NCBI GenBank assembly: GCA_947259645.1
Contig: CAMYND010000019.1
Span: forward strand, 1-64,000
DNA: 64,000 bases
From: Thermodesulfovibrionia bacterium
GTDB taxonomy: Bacteria; Nitrospirota; Thermodesulfovibrionia; UBA6902
Direction: 5' to 3'
Shown: positions 840 to 29,966 of the stretch, in pieces
Numbering within the stretch: the stretch's first letter is position 1
Layout: every line of letters begins with the position of its first letter
Program-made: the position numbers and the translations under genes
Notes under the pieces: model-generated
The model's input: only the letters and a program-made list of their open reading frames with translations
The model's database searches: none
What the model was told of the DNA's origin: nothing

Positions 840-866
840 ATAGCACTCTAAAGAGGAGAGTGCTAA
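840..866 (+). promoter_or_regulatory. CIRCE operator (HrcA binding site), aTAGCACTC-N9-GAGTGCTAA
   Basis: Inverted repeat TAGCACTC(841-848)-taaagagga-GAGTGCTAA(858-866) matches the CIRCE consensus TTAGCACTC-N9-GAGTGCTAA. The 9-nt spacer carries the AGGAG Shine-Dalgarno of hrcA. Confidence 0.85.
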
Positions 867-1927
867 TTGCTGTGAACAAACTGGATAATAGAGGCAAAAA
901 AATACTTTGGGCTGTAATTCAGAGCCATATAGATCTCAATGTTCCGATCGGCTCGATATTGATCACGAAACGATACCCGATCGGCCTGTCTCCGGCCACA
1001 GTCCGCAATGCCCTGTCCAAGCTGGAGGAATCGGGGTACATCATCCAGCCCCATACCTCGGCAGGGAGGGTTCCCACTGAAAAAGGGTACAGGTTTTACG
1101 TTGACACGCTCCTTGAGGAACAGTCGCTCTCAGTGAGCACTGCTCTGTCTGACCGGCTCTCCAGCAGGTTAAGGATTATTAAAGCTGACAACAAACTGCT
1201 CATAACAGAAGCGGCAAAAACACTTTCAACTTTTTCCCGTTATCTCGCACTGGCCACACCGCCGAGGATTGAAAACTTAATATTGAAGCGTGTAAAGTTT
1301 ATCAGGTATGAACAAAGGAAAGTCCTTGCGATACTGATTTCAGACGATGGGGTCGTTGAAAACAAAGTCATCGATCTGGAGCAGGCCCATACGCAGAAAC
1401 AGCTGGATAACGCGGCTAACCACCTCAACGAGGCGTTTTCCGGCCTCGCCATTAAGAAAGTCAAGGAAAAAATCGCATATCAATTATATAAGGAAAGATC
1501 TGAGTATGACCAGTTAGTGGCGAATCTGCTTTATGTATTCAGCGATATCATACCAAGTGAGGCTGATGCGACATCGTTAAACAGGTTTTCCGGAACCTCG
1601 AACCTCACAGAATTTGCAACAATGGTACAGATAAAAGCGATCCTGAAAGCGATCGAGGACAAACAGTTCATGCTTAAACTGCTGGAGCGCGTCAGTAAAT
1701 CCGAAGGCACGCAGGTCATTGTCGGAATGGAGCATATCCTTCCTTCACTAAAAGAACTGAGCATGGTGGTCTCTACGTATAACGGCAGCAAGTATGCTGG
1801 CGGAGCTATCGGTATCATCGGCCCTACGAGGATGAACTACCGGAAATTAATCCCCATTGTTGATCATACGGCAAAGGCCCTGACAGAAATATTATCAGAA
1901 GACAGAGGAGAATTAACATATGAATGA
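860..1927 (+). CDS. hrcA: heat-inducible transcription repressor HrcA (true start probably GTG at 872)
   Basis: N-terminal KILWAVIQSHIDLNVPIGS winged-helix region typical of HrcA. Sits directly upstream of grpE-dnaK-dnaJ and directly downstream of CIRCE. GTG at 860 overlaps CIRCE; the in-frame GTG at 872 has better SD spacing. Confidence 0.85.
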   Translation: MLIAVNKLDNRGKKILWAVIQSHIDLNVPIGSILITKRYPIGLSPATVRNALSKLEESGYIIQPHTSAGRVPTEKGYRFYVDTLLEEQSLSVSTALSDRLSSRLRIIKADNKLLITEAAKTLSTFSRYLALATPPRIENLILKRVKFIRYEQRKVLAILISDDGVVENKVIDLEQAHTQKQLDNAANHLNEAFSGLAIKKVKEKIAYQLYKERSEYDQLVANLLYVFSDIIPSEADATSLNRFSGTSNLTEFATMVQIKAILKAIEDKQFMLKLLERVSKSEGTQVIVGMEHILPSLKELSMVVSTYNGSKYAGGAIGIIGPTRMNYRKLIPIVDHTAKALTEILSEDRGELTYE

Positions 1928-2495
1928 CGAGCAGAATGACGAGCTAAATGAAGAAACAGAACAGATGAGTTCCGGCGAAGAGCCCTCTGAGGAGTCTGTC
2001 AGCGGAGGGGAAGACCCTGAAGAGCTCATAAAGTCTCTGGAGGAAGCAAATAATAAATACGTCAGGCTCTATGCTGATTTTGAAAATTACAAAAAAATAT
2101 CGGCAAGAAACAAAGAGGATCTTTTAAAGTACGCGAATGAAGAGCTGATATCTGACATTCTCACCGTAATTGACCATCTGGAACTTGCGCTTCAGCATGC
2201 ATCCGGGGATGAGACATCAAGCTCCCTGGCTGAAGGCGTGGAGCTGACATTAAAGGAACTGATGAACGTCCTCGAAAAGCAGGGGCTGAAAGTCATAGAA
2301 TCACTGGGCAAACCGTTTGATCCTGCAATGCATCACGCAATGTCACAGATTGAGTCGGAAGATGCGGATGAGAACACCGTTGTAAAGGAGTTTCGGAAAG
2401 GCTATATGTTGAAGGACCGAGTTATACGGGCAAGTATGGTCGGAGTTGCGGCCAGGCAGACTCAATCCGAATCAACGGGTACTGACAATTCTTAG
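1920..2495 (+). CDS. grpE: nucleotide exchange factor GrpE
   Basis: RLYADFENYKK motif and acidic N-terminus. Position is between hrcA and dnaK, with an 8-nt overlap with hrcA. Confidence 0.85.
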   Translation: MNDEQNDELNEETEQMSSGEEPSEESVSGGEDPEELIKSLEEANNKYVRLYADFENYKKISARNKEDLLKYANEELISDILTVIDHLELALQHASGDETSSSLAEGVELTLKELMNVLEKQGLKVIESLGKPFDPAMHHAMSQIESEDADENTVVKEFRKGYMLKDRVIRASMVGVAARQTQSESTGTDNS

Positions 2496-2567
2496 AATGA
2501 TACACGTAAAACTGAAGACAACAAGTAATCTATATACATTGCAGAATATTAGAGGAGGAGCACTAAC

Positions 2568-4487
2568 ATGGGAAGAGTAATCGGCATTGACCTTGGAACC
2601 ACCAATTCCGTAGTAGCTGTTATGGAGGGCGGAGAGCCGACAGTTATAGCAAACCAGGAGGGAACAAGAACAACCCCTTCCGTTGTAGCCTTTACAGACA
2701 AAGGGGAGCGTCTCATCGGACAGGTTGCAAAGAGACAGGCAATCACCAATCCGGAAAACACTATCTTCTCCATCAAGAGGCTGATGGGAAGAAAACTGGA
2801 TTCCACTGCGGCCAAGGATGCGCAGAAGAAGCTGCCCTATAAGATTGTAGGAGCGGCAAATGGTGACGCCCATGTAGAAGCCCACGGCAAAGCATATTCA
2901 CCACCCGAAGTTTCCGCAATGATACTTCAAAAGCTAAAGCAGGCTGCAGAGGATTACCTGGGGGAACCGGTAACCGATGCTGTCATTACTGTACCCGCAT
3001 ATTTTGACGACAGCCAGCGTCAGGCAACAACGGACGCGGGGAAAATAGCAGGGCTTAATGTCTTAAGAATAATCAACGAGCCAACAGCCGCCGCTCTTGC
3101 TTACGGCATGGACAAAAAGAAAGAAGAGAAAATCGCTGTCTATGATCTTGGAGGCGGAACGTTTGATATTTCGATCCTGGAGATTGGTGAAGGAGTCGTA
3201 GAGGTCAAGTCAACAAATGGCGATACCTACCTCGGCGGCGATGATTTTGATCTTGTGGTAATGGACTGGCTCGTAGATGAGTTCAAGAAAGACTCCGGGA
3301 TAGATCTTCACAATGATAAAATGGCCCTTCAAAGATTGAAGGAAACTGCTGAAAAGGCAAAAATAGAGCTCTCTTCAGCAATGGAAACTGAAATCAATCT
3401 GCCCTTTATTACAGCAGACGCCAACGGGCCTAAACACCTTGTGATCAAGTTGCCCCGTTCAAAATTCGAACAGCTTGCAGACGACCTTATTCAGCGAACA
3501 ATCGGCCCCTGTAAAACAGCCCTCTCTGACGCCGGCCTAAGCGCATCAGAAATTAACGAAGTACTACTTGTAGGCGGGCAGACAAGGACTCCGAAAGTCC
3601 AGCAGGTCGTCAAAGAGTTTTTCGGCAAGGACGCCTCGAAAGGGGTCAATCCTGATGAAGTTGTTGCTTCAGGTGCTGCGATACAGGCAGGAGTGTTAAA
3701 GGGAGAAGTCAAGGATGTTCTTCTTCTCGACGTCACCCCTCTCTCTCTTGGTATTGAAACCCTCGGCGGAGTGTTTACCAAACTGATAGAAAAGAACACA
3801 ACAATACCTGCCAAGAAAAGCCAGATATTTTCCACAGCAGCTGACAGTCAGCCCGCAGTCTCGATTAAAATATGCCAGGGAGAACGGGAAATGGCCTCTG
3901 ACAACAAGGTCCTGGGGAATTTCGAGCTCGTCGGGATCCCGCCAGCACCACGTGGTGTTCCCCAGATCGAGGTCACCTTTGACATTGACGCGAATGGGAT
4001 ACTCCATGTTTCAGCGAAGGACAAGGGCACGGGTAAAGAGCAGTCAATCCGGATTACTGCTTCAAGCGGACTCTCCGAAGAAGAAATAGACAAGATGACC
4101 AAAGACGCAGAGTCCCACGGGGAAGATGACAGAAAAAAACGCGCCCTGGCAGAGGCAAAAAATGAGGCTGACACCCTGATTTACTCCGTTGAGAAATCCT
4201 TGAAAGACTATGGTGATAAAGTTTCAGACGACGAAAAACAGCAGATTAACACCGCTCTTGAAAAGTGCAAAAATCTGAAAGACACCACAGCAGATGCTGA
4301 TGAACTGAAAAAGGCTGTGGAAGAGCTGACTACAGCTTCTCATAAAATTGCCGAAGAAATGTATAAAGAGGGAGCAGCCGGCGCAGAAGGCGCTGAGCAG
4401 TCTGCAGAAGGGACTGACGAGGACAAAGAAAAAGAGGATGTTGTTGAAGCAGAGTTTGAAGACACCGATAAAGATAAAAAGGAGTGA
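2568..4487 (+). CDS. dnaK: molecular chaperone DnaK (Hsp70)
   Basis: [18 protein letters not shown], and a C-terminal EEDK-rich tail. AGGAGG SD at about 2553. Confidence 0.97.
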
Positions 4488-4595
4488 TTTTTTTGCCACA
4501 GAGTTGCACAGACTGAAAAAAATATAAGGATGAATTACTTCACTATATACCTTGGTTTTCAGTCAGTGAATGTCAGTGGCGATTAAGAAATTAAA

Positions 4596-5705
4596 ATGAC
4601 AAAGGATTATTATCAAACATTGGAAGTAGACAAAAGCGCAACTGATGCTGATCTGAAAAAAGCATACAGAAGACTGGCGCTTAAATTTCACCCGGACAGA
4701 AACCCTGACGACAAGACTGCAGAAGACAGGTTCAAGGAAATTAACGAGGCCTACGCATGTCTCAGCGACTCGCAGAAAAGGTCGAACTATGATCAGTTCG
4801 GCACTGCAGACGGCGCCGGGGCAGGCTTTGGAGATTTCTCCGGAAATTTTGGAGACATCTTCGGGGAGATGTTCGGCGATATCTTTGGAGACTTTACCGG
4901 AAGAAGGAGAAACAGGCCTGCAAAGGGTCAGGACCTTCGCTACGACCTGGATATTGACCTAAAAGACGCTGTTTTTGGAACAGAGAAAAAAATTACGATA
5001 CCGCGGTCAGAGACCTGCTCCACCTGTGTGGGTTCCGGCTCCAAACCCGGAACAAACCCTGCAACATGCCAGACCTGCAGCGGCACAGGACAGACAAAAC
5101 TGCAGCAGGGATTTTTTGTTATCTCACGAACATGCAATAACTGCAGGGGAGAAGGCAAGATCATTACAGACCCGTGCACAAAGTGCAAGGGCCAGGGAAA
5201 GGTCAGAACAGAACGGAATGTATCACTGAAAATACCTGCAGGAGTTGATACAGGCATACGTTTGCGCGTAACCGGTGAAGGTGAAAGCGGAAGCCACGGA
5301 GGCCCGCCGGGCGATCTCTATGTAGTGATAAACGTTGAACCCCATCCCTACTTTAAGAGAAAAGGGAATGACCTTCTCTGTGAGGTCCCCATATCATTTG
5401 TTCAGGCTACACTGGGAAGTGAAATCGAGGTGCCGACAATTGATGGGAAAGCAGCTATCAAGATTCCTGCAGGAACTCCGTCCGGCAGAGTATTCCATTT
5501 GAGAGGAAAAGGCGTCCCAAAGCTGGGTTCATACGGCAAAGGCGACCAGTTCATTAACATCTTTATTGACGTTCCCAAAAAACTGTCGTCAAGACAGAAA
5601 GAACTGCTTGAGGAGTTTGCCGAGATCAGCGGTGATGAAGTTTCCAAAGGGTTTATGGACAAGATAAAGGACATGTTCCAACACCAGCATAAAGAGGCGA
5701 AGTAA
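4596..5705 (+). CDS. dnaJ: molecular chaperone DnaJ
   Basis: J-domain with HPD ([10 protein letters not shown]), a G/F-rich linker, and four CxxCxGxG zinc-finger repeats. Confidence 0.95.
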
Positions 5706-5736
5706 GGACAGCATTCAGCAATCAGCATGAAACGTA

Positions 5737-5768
5737 GGGGCGAACAGATGTTCGCCCTTTTTTATTAT
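5737..5768 (+). terminator. rho-independent terminator of the dnaJ operon
   Basis: GGGGCGAACAgatgTTCGCCC stem-loop followed by a TTTTTTATT run. Confidence 0.8.
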
Positions 5769-5806: not shown

Positions 5807-6484
5807 TCAGAATAAACGTGAAACAAGCTTCAGTACGGAACCGATGATATGATAATCATTGCTATGTGATGAGTTGTAAGCACTGCCTATTGTTTCCAGA
5901 GAGGAGGAATGCTCTTTCGCACGCTGTTTTTCCCTGCTCAATTTTTCAGCTTCCGCCATTTTTTTCCTCTGTTCATCCAGGATCTGGCCGCCTGCTTTTT
6001 TCCATTCCATGAGCCGCCTTAATTCTGAGCCTTCAAGCCAGATCCCGTCCGGTTTACAGTTGTCAATGATAACACCGCTGCCGGTCCCGAAATTTATCCG
6101 GTGCATGAGTTTCCTGCATATAGGGCACTTGCGATAGGCAACCCTGAAATTTTCTTTGCCAAGTTCATTTGAAAGGTTCTTTATTTTGTCGATATTAACA
6201 TGGAAGACATTGGAAACAGATTTTTCAAGCACTGACTCAAGTTCACCGGGATCAAAAAACATACCAAGGCACTGTTCGCACCTCTCTATGTAAAAGTTGC
6301 CTTCAAGTCCCAGGTCAAGAGTCTGTAACGGGATACCGCAGTTCGGACATATCCTCTCTGTACGGGGCTTATTAACCGTGTACTGGTGTACTCCTTTGAG
6401 GTCAACGTCACTTCTCTGCCCGCAATAGTTGCAGATATTCTTGTTCGGCGGCATCGGGGCTGAACAGGATTCACAGAGAGCCAT
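5807..6484 (-). CDS. tandem zinc-ribbon protein (two TFIIB-type Zn-ribbon/YfgJ-like repeats), YdjG-like
   Basis: Two CPxC...CxxC...(W/F)xDxGEL modules: CPNCG...CEQCLGMFFDPGELE and CPICR...CKPDGIWLEGSELRRL. Abuts the SPFH gene with zero gap. Confidence 0.6.
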   Translation of the reverse strand: MALCESCSAPMPPNKNICNYCGQRSDVDLKGVHQYTVNKPRTERICPNCGIPLQTLDLGLEGNFYIERCEQCLGMFFDPGELESVLEKSVSNVFHVNIDKIKNLSNELGKENFRVAYRKCPICRKLMHRINFGTGSGVIIDNCKPDGIWLEGSELRRLMEWKKAGGQILDEQRKKMAEAEKLSREKQRAKEHSSSLETIGSAYNSSHSNDYHIIGSVLKLVSRLF

Positions 6485-7522
6485 TTAGATCCTCCCCAGA
6501 ACGTCCTGTTTTTTAGCGCTGTATTCTTCTTCTGTTATGAGCTCCATCTCATACATCTCCTTGAGCTTTTGAAGTGTTGCCACAGGATCTTCAGGCTCAG
6601 ACCGGCTTTCAGGTTCCGCCTGCCGGGCTTCAGGCTGCTGCATCATATTTCCCATCGACCCGGCCATCATCTGGCCAAAGCCTACTCCAGCTCCCATTCC
6701 CATGCCGATTCCCGCGGCGCCACCCTCATTCTTTGCGGCATCTTTCATCGCGTCAAGTTGCTGCATTTGCGTATAGTTTATCCCTGCTGTCCTGGCGGCC
6801 TGGGCCTCAGCAGTTATATCTGCGATCCTGTTGATTCGGCGCATGGTATCTTCATCAAAGCTTGTTCCCTCTATTCTGAAATCAGTAATTTCAAAACCGA
6901 TTTTTTCAAATAATGGCTCCAGTTTTGTGTGTATCCCTTCAGCTATCTCTTCTCGCTTTGCATCAATTTCCGCATAAGAGAATTTTGATTCAGCAAGATA
7001 ATCTGTAAGAGGCTGTACAAGTCTGTCAACCATAACACTTCTCAGATCACTCACCGCAAAGTGTCCAGCACCGCCGACAATATTTACAAAAAATTCTTTT
7101 GGCTCGACGATTCTGACACTGTAATTTCCATAGGACCGAAGTCCGACCGGAAATTTGTATTGAGGGTCTTCATACTTGATGATGTTTGTTGTCCCCCATT
7201 TCTGGTCCAGTATTTTGGTTGTCCTGAAAAAATAGAGCCCCACCTTGTGCTCACTTTCAAAGGCCTGCATAAATTTCCTGATCGTTGTCCAGAACGGAAT
7301 GTTCGCCGTCTTTACGTCAACCATTATTTCACTGTCGTAAACAGCCTGAACCTTACCCTCATACACAAATATACATCCCTGCCCCGGTCCAACAATAAGT
7401 TTTGAAGCATTTTTAATTTCATCACCATTGTCTGTCCATTGATAAAACAGGTCATCAGGTAATGGATTATCCCACTCAACAACTGACCTTAACTGTCTTT
7501 TTATACCTTTCCAAAGTGCCAT
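6485..7522 (-). CDS. SPFH/band-7 family protein (COG4260, YdjI-like 'virion core protein' family) with C-terminal SHOCT domain
   Basis: N-terminus MALWKGIKRQLRSVVEWDNPLPDDLFYQW resembles the YdjI family. Gly/Met-rich linker. C-terminal LQKLKEMYEMELITEEEYSAKKQDVLG is SHOCT-like. Confidence 0.6.
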   Translation of the reverse strand: MALWKGIKRQLRSVVEWDNPLPDDLFYQWTDNGDEIKNASKLIVGPGQGCIFVYEGKVQAVYDSEIMVDVKTANIPFWTTIRKFMQAFESEHKVGLYFFRTTKILDQKWGTTNIIKYEDPQYKFPVGLRSYGNYSVRIVEPKEFFVNIVGGAGHFAVSDLRSVMVDRLVQPLTDYLAESKFSYAEIDAKREEIAEGIHTKLEPLFEKIGFEITDFRIEGTSFDEDTMRRINRIADITAEAQAARTAGINYTQMQQLDAMKDAAKNEGGAAGIGMGMGAGVGFGQMMAGSMGNMMQQPEARQAEPESRSEPEDPVATLQKLKEMYEMELITEEEYSAKKQDVLGRI

Positions 7523-7545: not shown

Positions 7546-9087
7546 TTAACCTGCTGCAATCTCATTTTTTTCTTCTTCTGTATGCCTGGATTCAAATCCC
7601 TTTCGTTCAAATTTATCCCAACCCTTTTTCCCCTTTATGAAGTCTACAAGAGCCTTCATCCTCCACCAGACTGTCAGCTGCCTGTATCCCAGGTTTTCGA
7701 TAATCGCAGCGAAAACGAGCACTATAATTTCCCTGAAGTCCTGAAAATAGAGCAGAGATTTGCCCGTAATGTCCGTTTCTGAAGTCTTTTCAGGCCATAC
7801 GCTCATTATTACTGAAAGGACAGAAAGTAATATCCCCAAAACAATTGCAAAAAAGATAAATAGGAAAAGATAGGTATAATTCAAATTATCGAGATAAAAA
7901 AGGACCGGGAGAGTTATGTAACCCATCATTTCCACAGGCGCGCCTATCAGTTCAAATATAAAAAAATAGGGGAAGGCAAAGAGTCCGATCCGGCCGTAAT
8001 TTTTATTAAATAGCATCTTTCGGTAGTACAGCATTGTCTCGATTAACCCCCGTTGCCAGCGGTTTCTCTGTTTGGAGAGGCTGGCCAGATCTTCCGGTGC
8101 TTCAGTCCATGCGAGGGGGTGTGGAACATAGGCCACTCTCTTATTTAATTTCTTCTCCTTGATGTACCGCTGAATCCTGACGATGATCTCCATGTCTTCA
8201 CAGACTGTCTCTACACTGTTTCCGGTGTATTCAGCCGCTATTTTGGACGTTATATTCTTGGTTAAGTATCCTCCGACTTTCTGCACGAGGTCCTTGTTGA
8301 AGACCCCGAAAACTCCCGAGATGATCAGGATAGACTGAAGCCGGGAAAGAGCGGTTCTTCCCATTGAGAAGGACCGTATATATTCAACAATCTGAAACCT
8401 GACGATCCATTTCTTTGGGAGACGGGGCTGGATGACCTTTCCCTTTTGAACGACTGAGTCATTCACAATTGCAACCTGTCCTCCGATAGCAACGATATCA
8501 TTGTTGTCAAGAATCGTTCTGAAGGCCTGAAGAAGTGCTGCCTCATCAATAATCGAGTCAGCGTCAATAGATACAAAGTACGGGCAGAATGATGCATTTA
8601 TCCCCGCATTGAGGGCATCTGCCTTCCCTCCGTTTTCCTTATCAATGAGGACAAACCGCTGAATATAGTCCGGAAGGTCTGCTTTTGAGATATAGCAGGC
8701 CCTGACCGGGGCGGTGGTAATCCGATCAACATAGTTAACATCAACGCGTTTCATATGAAAGGCACGTTTCAAGACGTCCATAGTACGGTCAGTAGAGCCG
8801 TCATTGATGATAACTATTTCAAGTCTGGGAAATTTCAGTTTCAACAGCGATCTCACCGATTCCACTATGGTTTTCTCTTCGTTAAAGGCGGGAACGAGTA
8901 CAGAGAGCGGTGGGGTAAAGGGAGAGGACATTGCAATATCATTCCCCTCATATCCCCTGCTGATGACACGTCTGCGCACATCACAAACAGCGACAACCAG
9001 GAAGAAGAGGTTAATCAGATAAAATATACAAAAATAGAGAATGAAAAAATACTCAATCAGTTTGTACATGAATTCCAGTGCAGTCAT
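7546..9087 (-). CDS. processive family-2 glycosyltransferase, PgaC/IcaA-like polysaccharide synthase (membrane-embedded)
   Basis: N-terminal transmembrane segment. LSVLVPAFNEEKTI...IVIINDGSTDRT (DxD-type). DADS. QRNRWQRG (Q-R-x-RW motif of processive GT2 enzymes). C-terminal multi-TM bundle. Confidence 0.75.
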   Translation of the reverse strand: MTALEFMYKLIEYFFILYFCIFYLINLFFLVVAVCDVRRRVISRGYEGNDIAMSSPFTPPLSVLVPAFNEEKTIVESVRSLLKLKFPRLEIVIINDGSTDRTMDVLKRAFHMKRVDVNYVDRITTAPVRACYISKADLPDYIQRFVLIDKENGGKADALNAGINASFCPYFVSIDADSIIDEAALLQAFRTILDNNDIVAIGGQVAIVNDSVVQKGKVIQPRLPKKWIVRFQIVEYIRSFSMGRTALSRLQSILIISGVFGVFNKDLVQKVGGYLTKNITSKIAAEYTGNSVETVCEDMEIIVRIQRYIKEKKLNKRVAYVPHPLAWTEAPEDLASLSKQRNRWQRGLIETMLYYRKMLFNKNYGRIGLFAFPYFFIFELIGAPVEMMGYITLPVLFYLDNLNYTYLFLFIFFAIVLGILLSVLSVIMSVWPEKTSETDITGKSLLYFQDFREIIVLVFAAIIENLGYRQLTVWWRMKALVDFIKGKKGWDKFERKGFESRHTEEEKNEIAAG

Positions 9088-9088
9088 A

Positions 9089-12000
9089 TCAGACGGTCCT
9101 CAACAGTTTTATGGCCTCGTCCCGTATCTCAGGGAGGGGGTCTTTCGTTGCATTGCTCAGAAATTTCTGATCACTTCCCCTGCTTGTGACAGCGAGGATC
9201 TTAAATGCATGCATCCGTCTCTCACCATCGGAAGACCTGTTGAATATACTCAACATGTCCTGTTTGTCGCAGAGTTCACTGACTATATTGACAGCCAGGG
9301 AATCCATTTTATTGTAATTCTCATAAGACTCTCCGGCAGCATATTGAAGTCCTGACAGATGGGGCCGGAACTCGGGAAAGCTTTTTACTTTTTTCTGAAG
9401 AATGGAAATTGTGCTTTTGAGATCAATTTTGGCGAGGCCAATCACTGCCCTGGTCCTGACATAACTGTCAATGTCCTGGATTGCAGACCTGACAATTTCA
9501 TATGCCCTTTCACCGCCTATCGCAGCAACAGCATTCACAGCCGCTGCCCGTACCCGCTCGTTTGGATCATACACAAGTTTTTCTATGTTGCCTATGGACT
9601 GCTTTTTCTTGAATTTTCCCAAAGCTCCCAGCGCCGCAGCCCTGACATCAGGGTCTTTGTCGCCCAAAATATTGACGAGGAACTTCAGGGAGCCCCGTTT
9701 CCTGCTTTTCCCCATGAGCCAGGCCATGCCTATCTTTCGTGTCTTTGTCTCGGGCACACTCTTTACAAGTTCCGCTACTTTTCCCTGCTCTCCCGACAGC
9801 AGGTGTGACAGGGAATTGGTAACCACTTCCCGAAACTCACGGTCAGGTGTGTCAAGAACGTGAAGTAGCGCTTCCAGCGCCCTGGGATTTTTATACTCTC
9901 CAAGCAGTTCTGCGGCCCTGCTTCTCACGTCAGGTGCGGGATCCATCAAAGATGAGGAGAACGCTGTAATCGCTTCTTCCTCCCTGCCAATGGAGGCCAC
10001 CACATCCATGGCCTGTATCCGCACTTCACCATAGGGGTCTTTTTTCATAACATTCAGGATAGAGGTGAAAAGATCAGGGGTTGCGATGATTTTCAGCATT
10101 TCAATGACATTCATCCTGATAACCGGGTCAAGAGCCTCTCTTAATTTTTTCACAAGTTCATTAGCAAACATGTTGTCATTTCCGGCAAAGAGCAGCGAAA
10201 CTTCCAGGTTATTCAATTTCTTTGCCCTTGCCTTTATTTCCTCGATTACATGGGTCAACCGGAGGTCACCTGTTATGTTGATGATCTCTTTTTTGATTTT
10301 TTTCAGATTATTATGAGAATAAAAACTCTTGAGAAAAAGCGGGTCATGAAAACAGGCCAGAGCGATAAATGCTCCTGCAACGACTTTAAGGGAAGGATCA
10401 TCAAGCATCTTAAGTATAAGTGGCCTGAACTGTGAAAGCCCCGACGCACCAAAGGCAAGAATGAGGGCAAGACGTACATTCTCATCAGGGTCGTTTCCCA
10501 GGACCTTGGCTTTCTCAAGAAAAGCGTCATTCGAATTAGGACCGACGCAGGCAAGAACAATTGTACGGACTGAACGGGAGGGGTCGAAAAGGGCCTTTTC
10601 AAAAAGTGATTCATGTTCATCAAAACCAAAGACTGAAGCAGCGCGATAGGCTTCTTCCCTGAGGGTCTCATCAACACTTCCGGTAAAATCGATAATGTAA
10701 TTGTAGGCATCGTCGTCTTTCACAATAGATGCAATCTCGATGAGTGCTCCAACCGCATCGGTACCAAGATTCTGTGTATCCAGCAGAGAGAGAATCGAGT
10801 TAAAGTCCAGTGTATTCACCCGTCGCATATATTCAACGATTTCCCGCCTCAGATCAACCGTACAGAGCGCCAGCAGCCTGATAATATCAGGAAGAACTTC
10901 TGCGTCAACGATTGCTGCAAAATATCGGATTGCCTCTATTCTCAAGCCCTCAGAGGCCTCTGTGAGAACATTGAGCATCTTCTGCCTGTCGACTATTATC
11001 CCCAGTTCCCGCATAACTCTTACCGCCGTAGTCCTTACTTTCGGAGCAGGGTCGTATAACAGTTTCTCTATCTTGTCCCAATGGGATGACACCTTGAGCA
11101 TTGCAAGGGCACTGAGAGCCGCTTCACGCGCATAGGGATGGGGGTCATCCAGAATGGCGGCGATCCGCCCTGAATATTCTGAGGCTTCAAGTGTAGCCAG
11201 TGCCTCAACAGCAGAACGCCTCACCCAGTACTGGGAATCCTTTAGATTCTCGATCAGGAGAGGAACTGCTTCCTTCGCTCCTATCTTTCCAAGGCTTTGG
11301 ATAATGCGTGCTTTCAGTGTCCATTCTCTCTCGGTCCTGAGAAGATTAATGAGCGGTTCCGAAGCCTCCCGCGTGCCTGCCTCTCCAAGAAGTCGTACAA
11401 TGCGTTTTTTAATATTTCCTTCGGAGCTTTCCAGCTTCTCGCACAGACTCTCAACAACTCCTGCCTGAGCAACAAGGAACAGTATCTTGCGCAGTTCTGA
11501 TTTGTATTTTTCCTCGCTGTACTCATCGAGTATTTTTTCTACATAGCCGATTCTCTCCAGTGCAAGGGCCGCCCGCCTCCGCACCTCAGAATCATGGTCC
11601 TCCATTGCTACAAGCAGCGATGGAATTGACATTTCCCCAAGCTGTTCCAGGGCCTCAACAGCCCTTACCCTCACCCACCATTCAGGATCTTTGAGAATAT
11701 TTACCAGATAATGAATTACCGAGGGGTGTCCGATAGCTCCCAGTGCCTGGGATATGCGCGTTCTGACAAAGGGGATCGGTTCAGATATGAGCAGTTCTGT
11801 CAGTTTAATAATAGAGCGATCACTTTTTATTTTTCCCAGTGCACCTGCTGTCTTTGCCCTGACTTCAGGGCTCACATCAAAGAGAGATTCAATAAGCGCC
11901 TGGACCGCCTCTTGTGAATTAAGCCATCCAAGTATTTCTGCTGACCATCCCCGCCTGCTCTCACTGTCAAAATTGGTCAGCTCCTTTTTCAGATATTCTA

Positions 12001-13345
12001 CGGAATCATTCCCAATATTGACGAGAATTTCACCAATTCTCGGAGGTAGCCAGGTTTCGGGACTGCCAAGGGCTTCTACAAGAAATGGGATCGCCCGCCT
12101 GTCCTGTATCCTGCCAAGGGCACGGAGAGCGACACTCCTGACGTCTTCATCTTCGTCGTTTGTATCACGGATGATCTCAATCAGGTAAGGGACCGCTTTG
12201 GCTGATCCGATAAGCCCCAGTTTTTCTGTGGCAAAGGCCCGCTTTTTCCAGGAATTAGAATTTTTCAGGCTCTCAATATACCTGTCAGTAATACCGGTGG
12301 CATCATAGATTTCCTGTATATTGGTTCCGGCCTTTCCTGCCAGGGCCGCTGCCCGGTCTACGATAAATTCAATAAACTGCGTATTTCTGATCTTCAGAAG
12401 CTTTTTCGTAATATCATCCAGAGAGAATGACGAGTAATCTCCCTCTGCTATGGCATCAATTATATCTTTATTTCTTTTTATTAATCGCCTCACCTGAAGA
12501 TCCTGAAGAGTGCCCTTCTTCCTCAGAAATATCACTACAATAAACAGAACAGAAGCAACGAATATCGCAACAGCGCATAAGGTCAAAATAATATTCATTG
12601 TTGAAAACCCATTCTCCGGCCAGAGCTTTTTGATAAGGGAGAGGCTTTCTGTTTCAGAAATATTATGCTTCTTTTCAGGTGGAGTCGCTCTGCTCTGTTC
12701 TGAGTGGCGAACTTCAGGCTCATGACTGTTCAGAGGGCCAGGACCGGCCTTCAGCACCTTATCCTGATCTCCTGATTTACCAGCATCAGCGCGAGTATTT
12801 TTTCCCCTGACTTCGGGAACAGGCCCGGGCAGAGTTTCAGTCAGGTTTTTGCCACTGACAGGTTTCCTCTCATCACGGGCCACGTGATTTCTCTTGTCAA
12901 GGAGTGAGCCTGATTTTTGGGAATCACTGCTCATGAATGATATATATGCATCTTTGTGTCCGATAGCGGCAAGTTTATTCTTAAGAGGGACTGCCTGTTC
13001 TTTAGAACTGAATCGTCCGCAGCTTACCTTGAAAAGCCTTTTGCTTTGTTTCATTCTGCAGTCTATTCCCGATCCCCCCAGTTTATTGATAAACCCCTCG
13101 GCAGTTTCCTGTTTTCCATAGGCACCGATCTGAATTGTATAGACATGCTCTCCATAGGAATTGGTCAACGGGATAAAGAAGAGAAGAAAGATAAGCAGAA
13201 AAGTAAAAGCCCGTGGCCGCACATTATGAGTCCTGGCAGTTCTGCATGGGAGGGCAAAGTCAGGCTGACATTGTCTTATTTTACTGCCTGCTGCGATGGA
13301 ACGCTTTTTTAGAGTAAATGTCCAGTTCATACCGTTATTACACAT
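9089..13345 (-). CDS. giant SPOR-domain / transmembrane / HEAT-repeat (PBS-lyase-type) protein, 1418 aa (start possibly ATG at 13330)
   Basis: N-terminal hydrophobic segment. SPOR-like fold (YTIQIGAYGKQETAEGFINKL...LFKVSCGRFSSKEQAV). Pro/Ser-rich linker. TM helix (MNIILTLCAVAIFVASVLFIVVIFL). Over 25 HEAT-like repeats (DPEWWVRVRAVEALEQLG, DSQYWVRRSAVEALATL, and others). One-nucleotide gap to the downstream GT2 gene. Confidence 0.65.
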   Translation of the reverse strand: MCNNGMNWTFTLKKRSIAAGSKIRQCQPDFALPCRTARTHNVRPRAFTFLLIFLLFFIPLTNSYGEHVYTIQIGAYGKQETAEGFINKLGGSGIDCRMKQSKRLFKVSCGRFSSKEQAVPLKNKLAAIGHKDAYISFMSSDSQKSGSLLDKRNHVARDERKPVSGKNLTETLPGPVPEVRGKNTRADAGKSGDQDKVLKAGPGPLNSHEPEVRHSEQSRATPPEKKHNISETESLSLIKKLWPENGFSTMNIILTLCAVAIFVASVLFIVVIFLRKKGTLQDLQVRRLIKRNKDIIDAIAEGDYSSFSLDDITKKLLKIRNTQFIEFIVDRAAALAGKAGTNIQEIYDATGITDRYIESLKNSNSWKKRAFATEKLGLIGSAKAVPYLIEIIRDTNDEDEDVRSVALRALGRIQDRRAIPFLVEALGSPETWLPPRIGEILVNIGNDSVEYLKKELTNFDSESRRGWSAEILGWLNSQEAVQALIESLFDVSPEVRAKTAGALGKIKSDRSIIKLTELLISEPIPFVRTRISQALGAIGHPSVIHYLVNILKDPEWWVRVRAVEALEQLGEMSIPSLLVAMEDHDSEVRRRAALALERIGYVEKILDEYSEEKYKSELRKILFLVAQAGVVESLCEKLESSEGNIKKRIVRLLGEAGTREASEPLINLLRTEREWTLKARIIQSLGKIGAKEAVPLLIENLKDSQYWVRRSAVEALATLEASEYSGRIAAILDDPHPYAREAALSALAMLKVSSHWDKIEKLLYDPAPKVRTTAVRVMRELGIIVDRQKMLNVLTEASEGLRIEAIRYFAAIVDAEVLPDIIRLLALCTVDLRREIVEYMRRVNTLDFNSILSLLDTQNLGTDAVGALIEIASIVKDDDAYNYIIDFTGSVDETLREEAYRAASVFGFDEHESLFEKALFDPSRSVRTIVLACVGPNSNDAFLEKAKVLGNDPDENVRLALILAFGASGLSQFRPLILKMLDDPSLKVVAGAFIALACFHDPLFLKSFYSHNNLKKIKKEIINITGDLRLTHVIEEIKARAKKLNNLEVSLLFAGNDNMFANELVKKLREALDPVIRMNVIEMLKIIATPDLFTSILNVMKKDPYGEVRIQAMDVVASIGREEEAITAFSSSLMDPAPDVRSRAAELLGEYKNPRALEALLHVLDTPDREFREVVTNSLSHLLSGEQGKVAELVKSVPETKTRKIGMAWLMGKSRKRGSLKFLVNILGDKDPDVRAAALGALGKFKKKQSIGNIEKLVYDPNERVRAAAVNAVAAIGGERAYEIVRSAIQDIDSYVRTRAVIGLAKIDLKSTISILQKKVKSFPEFRPHLSGLQYAAGESYENYNKMDSLAVNIVSELCDKQDMLSIFNRSSDGERRMHAFKILAVTSRGSDQKFLSNATKDPLPEIRDEAIKLLRTV

Positions 13346-14438: not shown

Positions 14439-14789
14439 TTAAATGCCCTGTTTTTCTGACAGCAGGTCAAAGGCATAATCCAGAATTAGGTCTGTTGCCT
14501 CTCTTTCACGGTTCGTCAGCTCAACCCCGAAAAGGCACTTATTATCTATCTGTTCATCCCAGGTTACGTTCCCGGTCAGGGAGACAGCAGAGTCATATGC
14601 GGGCAGCTTTACCATTACTTCAACAGGTGTCTTTACCAGTGGAGTAATGTCCGGTGACTCAATGCAAAACCCGCCGGATGATATATTTTTAATTTCCCCG
14701 GCAAATAACTCTTCAGAATATTTTGATGCTTTAATCGCGACAGCGAGGGTAATGTCAAACCGTTCATTTTTTCTTCTCTCATGTACCAT
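14439..14789 (-). CDS. PilZ-domain c-di-GMP-binding protein
   Basis: RRKNER (RxxxR) and NISSGG (D/NxSxGG) PilZ signature motifs. Confidence 0.7.
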   Translation of the reverse strand: MVHERRKNERFDITLAVAIKASKYSEELFAGEIKNISSGGFCIESPDITPLVKTPVEVMVKLPAYDSAVSLTGNVTWDEQIDNKCLFGVELTNREREATDLILDYAFDLLSEKQGI

Positions 14790-17963: not shown

Positions 17964-18617
17964 ATGATGATAAAATCACTGATAGGTTCAATCATTATCA
18001 TCATCTGCTTTGGGGCCTCATCTCACGCTGATATTTTCTCCTATACTGATAAAGACGGCGTTACCCACTTCACAAACATTTCTCAGGGCAAAAATTACAA
18101 GAAAATAATAACAGAACCCCCCCGAACAAAGACCGAACGTTTCGAGCGCATCATAAGCAGTAAATCGGGCAAATACGGCCTGGAACCTGAAATAATCAAG
18201 GCCGTCATAACAGCTGAGTCCAACTGGAATCCAAAGGCTGTTTCCCGGAAAGGTGCCATAGGACTCATGCAGCTCATGCCATCAACCGCAAAAGAGATGA
18301 AAATTTCAGACCCGTATAACCCTGAGGAAAATATAGAAGCCGGAACACGATATCTCAGGCACCTTCTTGACAGGTTTGACGAAGACCTGGACCTTGCCCT
18401 TGCAGCCTATAATGCAGGGCCCGGCAATGTGGAAAAAGCAGGAGGGATTCCTGCATTCATTGAAACCAGAATGTTTGTAAAAAGCGTCAAGTCCTTCTAC
18501 AAAGACTTCTCTCTCAACAAGGTGAAACCGATATACAGGCTGACCCTTGATGACGGGACTGTCATGTTCACCAATACGCCCTCTCCCTACAAGCAGTACA
18601 ACCTTTCAAAATTCTAA
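17964..18617 (+). CDS. secreted lytic transglycosylase (DUF4124 N-terminal domain + SLT domain)
   Basis: Signal peptide. IFSYTDKDGVTHFTN (DUF4124). ITAESNWNPKAVSRKGAIGLMQLMPSTA (SLT catalytic motif). Confidence 0.8.
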   Translation: MMIKSLIGSIIIIICFGASSHADIFSYTDKDGVTHFTNISQGKNYKKIITEPPRTKTERFERIISSKSGKYGLEPEIIKAVITAESNWNPKAVSRKGAIGLMQLMPSTAKEMKISDPYNPEENIEAGTRYLRHLLDRFDEDLDLALAAYNAGPGNVEKAGGIPAFIETRMFVKSVKSFYKDFSLNKVKPIYRLTLDDGTVMFTNTPSPYKQYNLSKF

Positions 18618-19798: not shown

Positions 19799-20764
19799 AT
19801 GAAAAATAAAATCAGGATCCTGCTTGTCGATGACGATGATGTTCTTCTTTCTGTCATTTCCATACAGCTGGGCAAGCACGATTTCGATATAACCACTGCC
19901 TCAAGCGGAGAGGAAGCACTAAATATTTTTCGCGAGTCATCTTTCCAGCTTCTTATCACTGATATAGTAATGCCCGGCATGTCCGGCATCGAACTGCTGA
20001 AAGAAGTCAAACGTATCAACCCTGAAACAGAGGTAATAATCATAACCAGCTATGCTTCCGTCGAGAATACGATCTCTGCACTCCGTTTCGGTGCCTATGA
20101 TTACCTGATCAAACCCTTTAAAAACCATGAGCTTGTTTCAGTCATCGTCAACCGGGCCGCTGAAAAGATCCGCCTTACCGCTGACAAAAAAATACTGCTG
20201 GACAATCTCATGGCATACAAAGAGGAGTTGGAATACCTCAACAAGGTTCTTCATAAACGTTCAATTTGTGACGGACTGACAGGACTTTATAACCATCAGT
20301 ACTTTCAAGAGGCGGGGGCAAAAGAATTAGCCAAATCCTCCCGATATGAACGACCTCTTTCTCTTATCTTCATTGATGTTGACTATTTCAAGGAATACAA
20401 TGATCAAAACGGTCATATCGCCGGAGACGACGCTCTTAAAAAAATCGCTGACCTGATCAAAAGACGCTTGAGAGATAGTGATATAATTGCCAGGTATGGT
20501 GGTGAGGAATTTGTTGCACTGCTCCCTGAAACAACAAAAGAGCAGGCCCTTATTATCGCTGAAACCCTGAGAGAAATGATCGCGGCATACCCCTTCCCCG
20601 GCAGCGAAAATCAGCCGAAAATGACTGTTTCGGTAAGTATGGGGATATCAGGATACCCTGATGACGGAAATGACCTGGCATCTCTTATTCGAGAGGCCGA
20701 CAATGCCCTCTACCGGGCAAAAGACTCCGGAAGAAATACAATATGCGAGGCAATAGATTCCTGA
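19799..20764 (+). CDS. response-regulator receiver fused to GGDEF diguanylate cyclase (PleD/WspR-like)
   Basis: REC domain (LLVDDDD...D). GGDEF domain with RYGGEEF active site and an RxxD I-site candidate. Confidence 0.85.
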   Translation: MKNKIRILLVDDDDVLLSVISIQLGKHDFDITTASSGEEALNIFRESSFQLLITDIVMPGMSGIELLKEVKRINPETEVIIITSYASVENTISALRFGAYDYLIKPFKNHELVSVIVNRAAEKIRLTADKKILLDNLMAYKEELEYLNKVLHKRSICDGLTGLYNHQYFQEAGAKELAKSSRYERPLSLIFIDVDYFKEYNDQNGHIAGDDALKKIADLIKRRLRDSDIIARYGGEEFVALLPETTKEQALIIAETLREMIAAYPFPGSENQPKMTVSVSMGISGYPDDGNDLASLIREADNALYRAKDSGRNTICEAIDS

Positions 20765-28766: not shown

Positions 28767-29966
28767 CTACAGGTAGTTCTCGGGAATCAGATTCCAGGCT
28801 TCAGGATCTTCATGGCATGCGACTTTGTCACTGTCCTGCAGTGATAGATCAATAACCCTTGGCATGATAAGCTTTTCTCTTTTTGTGTCATAGATAATTC
28901 TGACAACAGGGTGTATGAGGCTGCTTTCTCCATGCTCAAGTACGACACCGAGAAGACCACTCTCAAGGCGAACGAGAGAGCCAACAGGGTATATCCCGAC
29001 ACACCGGATAAATTTTTGCACAAGTTCGGGGTTATATGCGCCCCCCCATTCATAGAGCTTTTTCAGGGTTTCGGTTGGCTGAAACTGCTGCTGATAGCAC
29101 CGCTGTGATGTCATGGCGTCGTACACGTCCGCGATTGCTGCCATTTGACCGTAGATATTTATGCTGTCACCGCTCAGTCTGTCCGGATACCCGGTTCCGT
29201 CCACCCTCTCATGATGATGTGCCGCAACCATAATAGAGTTTGTGTGCATAGAAGGAGTATTCTCCAGAATAGTACGCCCCTCTTTGACATGCTTCCGTGC
29301 CTCGATGAACTCTTCTTCTGTTAATTTATTTATACTGGTAAGAATATCAACAGGGACATTGACTTTGCCAACGTCATGGAGAAGTCCCCCGACACCTATC
29401 TGCTTGATTAACTCGTAATCAAAACCGAGATGCTTGCCAAAAGATATCATAAGAACACCAACACTCACTGAGTGCATAAAGGTGTACTCGTCAACGCTCT
29501 TAATCCTGCCGAGGCTGGTAAGGGCGTCATTGTTTCTGAAAATTGACTCTATCATCTGCTCAACAACTCGGTCTACTTTCTCTACCTCTATCTGTTTTCC
29601 CAGCCGGACATCATTCATGAGGGTCTCGACTGTTTTCTTCGCCTCTTTTTTAACTTCCTTTGCCTTGTTGATCTCTTCACGCAAGGGGACTCTTTTGGGT
29701 CGGCTGATTTGGGGCTCAACAATCTTGTTTATCCCGGCGTCAATCTCCCTGGACACCTCTTCTTTGCTTGGAGCATCTGAAACATCCATTCCCTTATCTG
29801 TATCGATGTATACTTCACGCACACCATGGTCAATTATCTTCTCAATGGCTTTATCGGTATTGACCTTTATCCTGCTGTTGAGAAAGGGATGATCAAACCA
29901 GCCGCAGTTCATGTCGTGGATAAACATTCCCGGTTTTAACTGGCTGGTATTTATTTTTTTTATCAT
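28767..29966 (-). CDS. HD-GYP c-di-GMP phosphodiesterase with N-terminal DUF3391
   Basis: MIKKINTSQLKPGMFIHDMNCGWFDHPF (DUF3391). HDVGK...HHER(V)DGTGYP HD-GYP signature. Confidence 0.85.
   Translation of the reverse strand: MIKKINTSQLKPGMFIHDMNCGWFDHPFLNSRIKVNTDKAIEKIIDHGVREVYIDTDKGMDVSDAPSKEEVSREIDAGINKIVEPQISRPKRVPLREEINKAKEVKKEAKKTVETLMNDVRLGKQIEVEKVDRVVEQMIESIFRNNDALTSLGRIKSVDEYTFMHSVSVGVLMISFGKHLGFDYELIKQIGVGGLLHDVGKVNVPVDILTSINKLTEEEFIEARKHVKEGRTILENTPSMHTNSIMVAAHHHERVDGTGYPDRLSGDSINIYGQMAAIADVYDAMTSQRCYQQQFQPTETLKKLYEWGGAYNPELVQKFIRCVGIYPVGSLVRLESGLLGVVLEHGESSLIHPVVRIIYDTKREKLIMPRVIDLSLQDSDKVACHEDPEAWNLIPENYL

Follow-up and report, generated by a model that had tools for sequence, protein, structure and literature searches.

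A HEAT-repeat membrane protein and a family 2 glycosyltransferase as the probable inner-membrane core of a widespread, apparently undescribed glycan system

We analysed a 64,000-nucleotide stretch of a Thermodesulfovibrionia bacterium genome (GenBank assembly GCA_947259645.1, contig CAMYND010000019.1, positions 1 to 64,000; hereafter the window) with respect to two adjoining minus-strand genes. One encodes a 1418-residue protein with a SPOR domain and HEAT repeats (hereafter the partner) and the other a 513-residue membrane glycosyltransferase of family 2 (GT2). These two proteins probably form the inner-membrane core of a synthase-dependent glycan system that is widespread and apparently undescribed, and it is very likely that they function together. 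The system is a variant of synthase-dependent glycan secretion and not a categorically new one. The two genes and their junction are as follows.

9089 to 13345, minus strand: partner gene, 1418 residues (1377 if translation starts at the GTG at 13222), with predicted signal peptide or first transmembrane (TM) segment, SPOR domain, linker, second TM segment and HEAT solenoid (open reading frame and Pfam); 58% identical over its length to the orthologue in the related locus L001
9088 to 9088, minus strand: spacer of 1 nucleotide after the TGA stop of the partner and before the ATG start of the GT2; ATGA overlaps occur in many relatives
7546 to 9087, minus strand: membrane GT2 synthase gene, 513 residues

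Both open reading frames (ORFs; 1418 and 513 codons) were confirmed at these coordinates from the ORF list and the translations, and their lengths and domain scores are well above chance. The junction reads GTC TGA T ATG, with nucleotide 9088 as the single spacer and a GAGG upstream of the GT2 start, implying translational coupling of the two genes. An earlier note on this DNA, made from the letters alone, had placed the two genes one nucleotide apart on the minus strand, and the ORFs and the junction sequence bear this out.

The pairing extends far beyond the window. Homologues of the GT2 number 7156 at E ≤ 1e-20, the closest (76% identity) coming from metagenome-assembled genomes (MAGs) of Nitrospiraceae and Desulfobacterota. 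For the survey of loci, one genome per species was taken; at least 589 species carry a GT2 relative and the best 80 loci were kept. The partner was counted in 81 loci (the best 80 and L082), of which 76 were assessable. A HEAT ORF adjoins the GT2 in 75 of the 81 (75 of the 76 assessable) from at least 15 phyla, and five of the six exceptions are cut at a contig edge where the partner would be expected. The surveyed loci belong to Nitrospirota, Desulfobacterota, Gemmatimonadota, Myxococcota, Ignavibacteriota, Bacteroidota, Balneolota, Actinomycetota, Marinimicrobia, Chloroflexota, Bacillota, Spirochaetota, Deinococcota, Lentisphaerota, Acidobacteriota, Aquificota and Pseudomonadota. The HEAT gene lies mostly immediately upstream of the GT2 gene, often with an ATGA stop/start overlap, and downstream of it in Myxococcota. 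One locus with REC, HEAT and GT2 genes (L067, a Methanomicrobia MAG) is binned as archaeal, which may reflect horizontal transfer or the mis-binning of a bacterial contig.

Partners of most phyla are only 350–410 residues long; they carry a TM helix at the N-terminus and HEAT repeats after it, recognised by Pfam as HEAT_2 in L069 and L076. The N-terminal part of these short partners corresponds in alignments to residues 245–400 of the window partner (second TM segment, juxtamembrane region and first repeats), and the conserved unit is therefore a TM-HEAT protein together with the GT2. Judged by these alignments, residues 1–245 (signal, SPOR and linker) and the repeats past residue ~640 are additions made in few lineages; long partners (~820–1440 residues) were found only in loci of Nitrospirota, Desulfobacterota, Gemmatimonadota and Myxococcota. 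The conserved synteny of a GT2-HEAT pair, which the earlier note had put forward as a check, is thus present in nearly all assessable loci, but its core is the short TM-HEAT protein, and the SPOR domain and the giant repeat array are lineage-specific. The window pair belongs to this module, its GT2 being a member of a clade (at least ~37% identity, C-terminal GW.K..RKGF) that is adjacent or fused to a membrane-anchored HEAT protein. No NCBIfam model for the GT2 clade or for the partner, and no link between a HEAT protein and a GT2 synthase in the open-access literature, was found; this is in line with the earlier note, which did not recognise the pairing as a described system.

The two proteins also occur as a single polypeptide. 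Cluster representatives (1.84 billion, clustered at 50% identity) were searched exhaustively with phmmer, which returned 986 clusters at E ≤ 1e-30; the best 150 were classified. Seventy of these 150 representatives are proteins of ~940–1020 residues with the GT2 in the C-terminal half. Their layout, a TM segment at residues 5–10, ~430 residues of partner, two TM segments at ~440–500 and then the glycosyltransferase (GT) domain, fits every one of the 50 proteins in which the GT start could be placed. A hidden Markov model (HMM) of the stand-alone partner matches 60 of the 70 fusions, and Pfam HEAT_2 was detected in 28 of the 50 scanned. The stand-alone GT2 has one N-terminal TM segment and the fusions have two; the extra segment keeps the solenoid and the GT domain both in the cytoplasm, which speaks for adaptation of the fusions and against artefacts of assembly. 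A HEAT-GT2 fusion of 1022 residues from Leptospira biflexa is present in three independent assemblies, and the reverse order, GT2-HEAT, is seen in P0278. An AlphaFold2 (AF2) model of the fusion P0225, built from an alignment of 50 sequences, has a predicted local distance difference test score (pLDDT) of 87 and a predicted template modelling score (pTM) of 0.87 over 1010 residues. Such a pTM across two domains of ~450 residues each indicates that the mutual arrangement of solenoid and GT domain is defined. From the 1-nucleotide junction, the adjacency and the fusions, the window holds an inner-membrane GT2 and its co-subunit in one operon, as expected of a synthase-dependent system.

Other fusions were encountered in the same searches. 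The GT2 is joined to TPR repeats and/or a YaiO beta-barrel in single ORFs (L079, 9992–12340; P0265; P0323), which are probably not frameshift artefacts because they occur in several independent clusters. A GT2-YaiO fusion would join an inner-membrane synthase to a presumed outer-membrane porin, and such an envelope-spanning polypeptide would be unusual. P0282 (1140 residues) carries, besides the GT2, five extra TM segments and a Sulfatase-family domain of the BcsG/LtaS/EptA type, which hints at modification of the polymer by phosphoethanolamine or phosphoglycerol in some lineages.

The GT2 itself has the features of a membrane synthase. Pfam matches are to Glycos_transf_2 (1.4e-24), Glyco_tranf_2_3 (6e-20), Glyco_trans_2_3 (4e-12) and Chitin_synth_2 (4e-11). 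The motif set of processive enzymes with a GT-A fold is complete, comprising NDGSTD at residues 95–100 (D96 and D100), DAD(S) at 175–178 (D175-A-D177), the catalytic base ED at 297–298 (E297-D298) and QRNRW at 340–344; these four motifs are invariant in 16 aligned homologues, the most distant at 46% identity, as well as in 50 fusion proteins. Their positions, and that of a second conserved stretch at the C-terminus, are given below.

8056 to 8805, minus strand: catalytic GT-A region (NDGSTD 8788–8805, DAD 8557–8565, ED 8194–8199, QRNRW 8056–8070)
7594 to 7632, minus strand: C-terminal cytoplasmic motif GKKGWDKFERKGF, residues 486–498, with invariant columns G486, W490, K492, F493, R495, G497 and F498

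The AF2 model of the GT2 (pLDDT 79, pTM 0.81) and the hydropathy profile agree on a single N-terminal TM helix and a C-terminal helical bundle, and the GT domain is integrated with interface helices and a channel-forming TM bundle. The hallmarks of a processive synthase and the C-terminal extension of roughly 70 residues that the earlier note had described are recovered by motifs, Pfam and AF2. A Foldseek search with the model gave full-length matches to the Chlorella-virus hyaluronan synthase (HAS; Cv-HAS, E 3e-15), Xenopus HAS1 (Xl-HAS1), yeast and oomycete chitin synthases and BcsA. By fold and motifs the protein is assigned as a membrane GT2 synthase-translocase, and we are fairly confident that it is a processive glycan synthase. 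Our best guess for the product is a beta-glycan containing N-acetylglucosamine (GlcNAc), because the nearest sequence families (PgaC/IcaA, chitin synthase and NodC) use UDP-GlcNAc.

The ~70 residues that lie past the end of the alignment with E. coli PgaC consist of the last TM helix and the cytoplasmic motif GKKGWxKFERKGF. In the fusions the consensus of this motif is GWGKxxRKGF, of which only the W and the R before KGF are strictly invariant. We suspect that the motif is a candidate gating loop or a contact for a partner or regulator; when a sequence profile search of the PDB was used to align it with the gating loop of HAS, only N-terminal GT-A stretches aligned. A relationship to E. coli NfrB/NfrA, considered on account of the TPR-barrel neighbours of some relatives, was rejected, as NfrB matches by BLASTP at E 0.012 (GT2 fold only) and no MshEN or NfrA_C domain is present in the window proteins.

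The partner has the layout that the earlier note had read from the sequence (SPOR, TM, HEAT over 1418 residues), as judged by Pfam and hydropathy. The SPOR domain (residues 69–134) scores 41.3 bits for PF05036 against a gathering score of 21 (E 2e-10), and below threshold the same stretch is matched by the NCBIfam models of RlpA and FtsN at their SPOR-containing ends. HEAT_2 is matched in 11 stretches (Pfam, E 6e-109). Hydropathy marks hydrophobic segments at residues 46–64 and 250–274, the second followed by RKKG. In the predicted topology a signal peptide or first TM segment (TM1) precedes the periplasmic SPOR domain and a flexible linker, and a second TM segment (TM2) leads into a cytoplasmic HEAT solenoid of ~1100 residues; the SPOR domain would thus lie between TM1 and TM2, with the positive residues after TM2 on the cytoplasmic side. 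The parts of the partner are as follows.

13154 to 13210, minus strand: hydrophobic segment, residues 46–64 (AFTFLLIFLLFFIPLTNSY), signal peptide or TM1 (hydropathy; signal peptides of orthologues are 30–40 residues)
12944 to 13141, minus strand: SPOR domain, residues 69–134, predicted periplasmic (Pfam PF05036); conserved in L001 and L082 only
12611 to 12928, minus strand: Pro/Ser/Lys/Glu-rich linker of ~105 residues (140–245), predicted periplasmic and probably disordered (composition); alignable only with the closest relative
12524 to 12598, minus strand: TM2, residues 250–274, followed by cytoplasmic RKKG (hydropathy 3.23); aligns to the N-terminal TM of short stand-alone partners
11426 to 12613, minus strand: conserved partner core, residues 245–640, with TM, juxtamembrane region and first HEAT repeats (phmmer/jackhmmer, partner HMM); common to the 350–410-residue partners of other phyla
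9089 to 11425, minus strand: lineage-specific extension of the HEAT array, residues 641–1418 (Pfam HEAT_2)

The start of the partner may lie further inside the ORF. A GTG at 13220–13222 (minus strand), 42 codons into the ORF, has AGGA 7 nucleotides upstream, and translation from it begins MRPRAFTFLL... and yields a canonical cleavable signal peptide, MRPRAFTFLLIFLLFFIPLTNSYG|EHV (…TNSYG|EHV), comparable to the 30–40-residue leaders of the two closest orthologues. For the ATG at 13345 the ribosome-binding site (RBS) is poorer, and the leader would be basic and 46 residues long. A homologue search with the first 609 residues of the partner was dominated by generic HEAT proteins; it did not recover the orthologues and gave no informative names.

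Genes around the pair in other genomes suggest a regulatory and an export side to the system. Commonly found there are genes for a PAS or hybrid histidine kinase, for a REC-GGDEF protein of ~510 residues and, directly before the HEAT gene, for a single-domain REC protein of ~125 residues. The GT2 gene is followed by a TPR and YaiO beta-barrel gene in diderms or by a gene for an exported protein of ~1077 residues in Bacillaceae and Leptospira. Of 78 loci, 54 have a same-strand REC gene no more than 600 nucleotides from the pair, and 30 have a GGDEF gene no more than 5 kb from it. In 20 loci the gene after the GT2 encodes either the exported protein of ~1077 residues (monoderms and Leptospira) or a related one of ~400 residues (diderms); neither has a match in Pfam or NCBIfam, and they form a conserved third component. 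Examples are given below.

L069, 11371 to 14601: exported protein after the GT2
L058, 11464 to 14694: exported protein after the GT2
L043, 12919 to 14106: exported protein after the GT2

The usual layout of the class is therefore kinase, REC or REC-GGDEF, TM-HEAT, GT2, and a TPR-YaiO porin or a large exported protein. By gene content, this neighbour set reads like that of an exopolysaccharide system of the synthase-dependent kind, controlled by two-component signalling and cyclic di-GMP (c-di-GMP). The statement of the earlier note that the HEAT protein is the only partner of the GT2 holds within the window, but the relatives add TPR-YaiO, a large exported protein and REC, GGDEF and kinase genes.

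The PilZ, two GGDEF and HD-GYP genes that the earlier note had seen near the pair were confirmed by domain scans.

14439 to 14789, minus strand: PilZ protein of 116 residues (Pfam 1e-11; RKNER...NISSGG), 1.1 kb from the partner gene, beyond rsmE
19799 to 20764: REC-GGDEF protein
20904 to 22814: HAMP-GGDEF protein
28767 to 29966: DUF3391 and HD_5 protein with HHE...GYP (HD-GYP)

The further suggestion of the earlier note, that c-di-GMP could control the pair, finds no support in the window itself. The PilZ and GGDEF genes are separate transcription units 1–9 kb from the pair. PilZ was rejected as a conserved neighbour, being found only in the window and in L082 (a small PilZ protein 4 kb away), and the two proteins are not detectably related. 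The window GGDEF proteins show only generic similarity to those linked to the system; for the window REC-GGDEF protein the identity to the system-linked REC-GGDEF proteins is 27–34%. Neither the partner nor the GT2 contains a PilZ, MshEN, I-site or GIL domain in Pfam or NCBIfam. Control by c-di-GMP is plausible for the family and also for the window copy, but the latter has no local support for it. That a REC or c-di-GMP input acts through the HEAT partner is a tentative idea, to which we give somewhat less than an even chance.

Between the window copy and its closer relatives the partner varies in size and in the presence of the SPOR domain.

Window: partner of 1418 residues, SPOR; SPFH and zinc-ribbon genes downstream
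L001: partner of 1354 residues, 58% identical, SPOR; TM-GGDEF gene directly after the GT2
L082 (2.5-Mb Nitrospiraceae genome, CP070644.1): partner of 1420 residues, SPOR; divergent GGDEF gene directly upstream
L084: partner of 1272 residues with two TM segments and a periplasmic loop, no SPOR match; GT2 abuts dnaJ
L085 and L086: partner of ~1170 residues with a single N-terminal TM; L086 has a TPR gene after the GT2

SPOR domains of FtsN, DamX, DedD and RlpA bind denuded septal glycan. A SPOR domain was also found at the other end of the system, in P0222 (41% identical to the window GT2), which consists of the GT2, an extra TM segment, an Ala/Pro-rich linker of ~200 residues and SPOR (30.6 bits, E 4e-7). 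The P0222 locus, seen in six contigs of up to 800 kb, encodes a PAS-kinase, a REC-kinase, a REC protein, a HEAT protein of 365 residues and the GT2-SPOR protein. Judging from the domain layouts, a periplasmic SPOR domain has been gained at least two times independently, at the N-terminus of the partner and at the C-terminus of the synthase, which argues that tethering of the complex to peptidoglycan is useful. Targeting of the complex to the septum, which the earlier note had raised as a possibility, would follow by analogy to the known SPOR proteins but is rather doubtful.

In the mechanism that we propose, the GT2 would polymerise a UDP-sugar on the cytoplasmic face in an inverting and processive manner and pass the chain through its own TM channel. 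The HEAT partner would be an obligate co-subunit, its TM helix packing in the membrane and its cytoplasmic solenoid docking on the synthase. We infer such a complex from the translational coupling, the near-universal adjacency, the frequent fusions and the confident fusion model. In most lineages the solenoid would be the likely receiver of regulatory input from the single-domain REC protein, the REC-GGDEF protein or the hybrid kinases. In the Nitrospiraceae lineage the partner would have grown to ~1100 residues of repeats and gained an exported N-terminal SPOR domain on the linker of ~105 residues. This domain would tether the complex to peptidoglycan at denuded strands, preferentially at septa if it behaves as in FtsN, DamX, DedD and RlpA. 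Here the export porin may be encoded elsewhere, or the polymer may be retained in the envelope. The broader proposal, that this is a new class in which a solenoid (and not PilZ, PgaD, PelD or MshEN) gates the synthase on phosphorylated REC and/or c-di-GMP, with the SPOR-linked lineages synthesising at division sites, we hold as possible, at slightly under an even chance.

Several observations weigh against the proposed system. The pair in the window has no YaiO, TPR porin or homologue of the ~400/1077-residue exported proteins beside it; the only TPR match in the window (54530–56665) is an SLT lytic transglycosylase and not an outer-membrane porin. No REC or GGDEF gene adjoins the pair in the window. 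SPOR is present in only 3 of ~85 partner loci (window, L001 and L082) and in one GT2 fusion, and so stands outside the core mechanism. An alignment of 29 short partners shows HEAT-consensus positions only, with no conserved ligand-binding motif. The model of P0225 was read from its pLDDT and pTM scores, and the HEAT-GT2 interface itself is presumed. Finally, the polymer, its processivity, the complex and the regulation are all inferred.

Of the other explanations, the one that survives best keeps the same machine, but has its product retained in the envelope (periplasmic or peptidoglycan-associated, possibly septal) or has it glycosylate a lipid or cell-wall acceptor. The lack of a TPR/YaiO porin or exported accessory gene beside the pair in the window, L001, L082, L084 and L085 would fit it, and the SPOR domain points to peptidoglycan. 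However, the GT2 has the full processive motif set including QRNRW and matches HAS and BcsA over its full length. The Desulfobacterota relatives (55–68% identity) keep a TPR gene directly after the GT2, which the Nitrospiraceae group lacks, other phyla have YaiO barrels, and the porin may sit elsewhere in the genome. We therefore regard this explanation as unlikely.

A second explanation concerns the genes downstream of the GT2, the transcript being probably one of four genes (partner, GT2, SPFH and zinc-ribbon). The features of this downstream part are given below.

6485 to 7522, minus strand: SPFH (Band_7_1) and SHOCT protein (Pfam), with an AAGGAGG RBS; starts 23 nucleotides past the GT2 stop
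5807 to 6484, minus strand: double TFIIB-type zinc-ribbon protein (Pfam), abutting the SPFH gene; last gene of the probable transcript
5736 to 5759, no strand assigned: GC-rich hairpin between the convergent dnaJ and zinc-ribbon genes (stem of 10 bp, of which 6 are GC, and a T-run); the scan scored it as a terminator of the plus strand (dnaJ)

We favour a four-gene transcript because the genes are co-directional, no terminator separates them and the RBS lies 23 nucleotides after the GT2 stop. The terminator scan found no strong terminator-like site on the minus strand from 13345 to 5807, only weak stems of 5–7 bp, and the hairpin at 5736–5759 is the sole strong one downstream of the GT2 unit; its use by the minus-strand unit is presumed. 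The two-gene operon of the earlier note is thus right as to co-transcription, which fits the 1-nucleotide junction, but the transcript probably continues into the SPFH and zinc-ribbon genes. One could suppose that these four genes form one functional unit, in which the flotillin-like SPFH protein and the zinc-ribbon protein shape a microdomain of the membrane in which the synthase resides or by which it is regulated; the co-directional genes, the strong RBS and the absence of a strong terminator before 5736–5759 would be expected of it. Against this, no homologue of SPFH or zinc-ribbon was found in the 80 related loci searched, and in the positional orthologue L084 the GT2 (75% identical) directly abuts dnaJ, with no SPFH or zinc-ribbon gene in the gene list. 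Pairs of SPFH and zinc-ribbon genes are also self-contained elsewhere, as in B. subtilis YdjI/YdjG, which recruit PspA to the membrane and which this tight pair resembles. The microdomain explanation is thus improbable. The two genes were rejected as system components, and given their absence from the related loci and the position of the L084 GT2 beside dnaJ, we treat them as an inserted separate module and not as a conserved part of the system. A complete heat-shock operon, hrcA-grpE-dnaK-dnaJ (860–5705, plus strand), is convergent with the GT2 unit, and the same neighbourhood (dnaJ-dnaK-grpE-hrcA) flanks the pair in L084, which marks the positional orthology of the two loci.

It is very improbable that the GT2 is an ordinary synthase of poly-N-acetylglucosamine (PNAG; Pga/Ica), with PgaABD or IcaD encoded elsewhere and the HEAT gene an unrelated neighbour. 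PgaC_IcaA is indeed the top NCBIfam match of the GT2, and E. coli PgaC aligns at E 1e-27. However, the score for TIGR03937 is 120.3 bits against a cut-off of 422.3, and the alignment to E. coli PgaC has 26% identity and three insertions. PgaC orthology, which the earlier note had named as an outcome that would speak against its proposal, was therefore rejected. The GT2 clade is separate (37–76% identity) and in more than 80 loci is found always with HEAT and never with pgaABD. No PgaA, PgaB, PgaD, IcaD or IcaB, and no deacetylase, was found among the window genes scanned or the scanned neighbour genes of related loci.

Least probable of all, to the point of being negligible, is that the HEAT protein, as a generic scaffold or a protein resembling phycobilisome lyases (the other contrary outcome named in the earlier note), lies next to the GT2 by coincidence: its top NCBIfam names are indeed NblB, CpcE and CpcF, and HEAT repeats carry little family-specific signal, but the scores are well below the cut-offs, the adjacency recurs in 75 of 76 loci with start/stop overlaps, dozens of independent fusion clusters carry the compensating TM segment, the fusion model reaches its pTM of 0.87, and bacterial HEAT proteins are rare (3,378 annotated in UniProtKB; PMC11514114). 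For the models tested (CpcE, CpcF, CpeY and NblB) the scores against cut-offs are 153/300 bits (NblB), 119/330 (CpcE), 82/220 and 69/600, and a lyase or NblB identity was rejected; we read these matches as generic repeat similarity.

In comparison to known systems, the window pair combines features of several. PgaCD and IcaAD are the nearest curated sequence family and share the membrane GT2 with D, DxD, ED and QxxRW. They need a small membrane co-subunit; in E. coli, c-di-GMP binds PgaC-PgaD and the TPR-porin PgaA exports the polymer. The co-subunit of the window pair is instead a TM and HEAT solenoid and not PgaD/IcaD, no PgaB-type deacetylase accompanies it, and the porin of its relatives is TPR with YaiO and not PgaA. 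Class I HAS and chitin synthases, in which one polypeptide polymerises and translocates, give the best full-length structural matches and the Pfam match to Chitin_synth_2. However, the identity is ~15% and those enzymes work without a dedicated co-subunit; the motif GKKGWxKFERKGF also differs from their WGTR gating-loop sequence, and we offer equivalence of the two only as a hypothesis.

The Bcs system (BcsA-PilZ, BcsB and BcsC) is similar in its inner-membrane GT2, its cytoplasmic regulatory module and, in the relatives, the TPR and beta-barrel porin and frequent diguanylate cyclase neighbours, and the Sulfatase-family domain of P0282 is reminiscent of BcsG. In contrast to Bcs, the window synthase has no PilZ domain, BcsB is lacking and the candidate regulator is a separate HEAT protein. 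The latest-described additional synthase-dependent system, E. coli Nfr, consists of a GT2 and a TPR-barrel outer-membrane protein under local c-di-GMP control (PMC8669469). It differs in that NfrB (GT2-MshEN, which with NfrA and YbcH makes up the system) has a C-terminal MshEN domain, NfrA has NfrA_C and not YaiO, and there is no HEAT partner. In M. xanthus the single-domain response regulator CheY7 directly targets the HEAT-repeat protein Cpc7 (PMC11514114), which mirrors the REC-then-HEAT gene order of most loci. However, Cpc7 is soluble and belongs to a Che-like pathway with no link to a glycosyltransferase, and the window has no adjacent REC gene. In a review of alpha-solenoids, Cpc7 and the AlkC/AlkD glycosylases are the only HEAT examples from bacteria.

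FtsN, DamX, DedD and RlpA resemble the window partner in carrying SPOR on a long flexible periplasmic linker with a single TM. The window arrangement is reversed, with an exported N-terminal SPOR and a cytoplasmic C-terminal solenoid of 1100 residues coupled to a glycan synthase. In the E. coli K-12 cluster yaiS-yaiP-yaiX-yaiO (L089, 380069–384616), a YaiO barrel stands beside the membrane GT2 YaiP, the acyltransferase pseudogene yaiX and the deacetylase yaiS. YaiP is 25% identical over 219 residues (E 3e-12); unlike the loci above, the cluster has no HEAT gene, and an IS2 disruption splits yaiX. By this comparison the yai genes look like remnants of a cluster for glycan export, which supports a role of YaiO barrels as porins for glycans.

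To our knowledge, synthase-dependent polysaccharide systems are few: cellulose, PNAG, alginate, Pel and, since 2021, Nfr. The known ones have informed how biofilm matrices are built and how second messengers gate their synthesis. If the proposed system is real, it would add to them one that comprises ~1,000 clusters (50% identity) and is encoded in at least 589 species genomes, with cultivable carriers such as Leptospira biflexa, Thermus, Bacillaceae, Paenibacillus, Clostridium, Ignavibacterium and Gracilimonas. The HEAT solenoid would be a type of co-subunit not earlier linked to glycan synthesis. Orphan REC-GGDEF and CheY-like regulators of many phyla would receive candidate outputs from the system and YaiO-type barrels a suggested function, and the two independent gains of SPOR would make a link between glycan secretion and the division septum testable.

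The window also encodes two SLT lytic transglycosylases (17964–18617 and 54530–56665); DUF4124 is present in one of them and a long TPR region in the other. SPOR domains recognise the products of lytic transglycosylases and of amidases.

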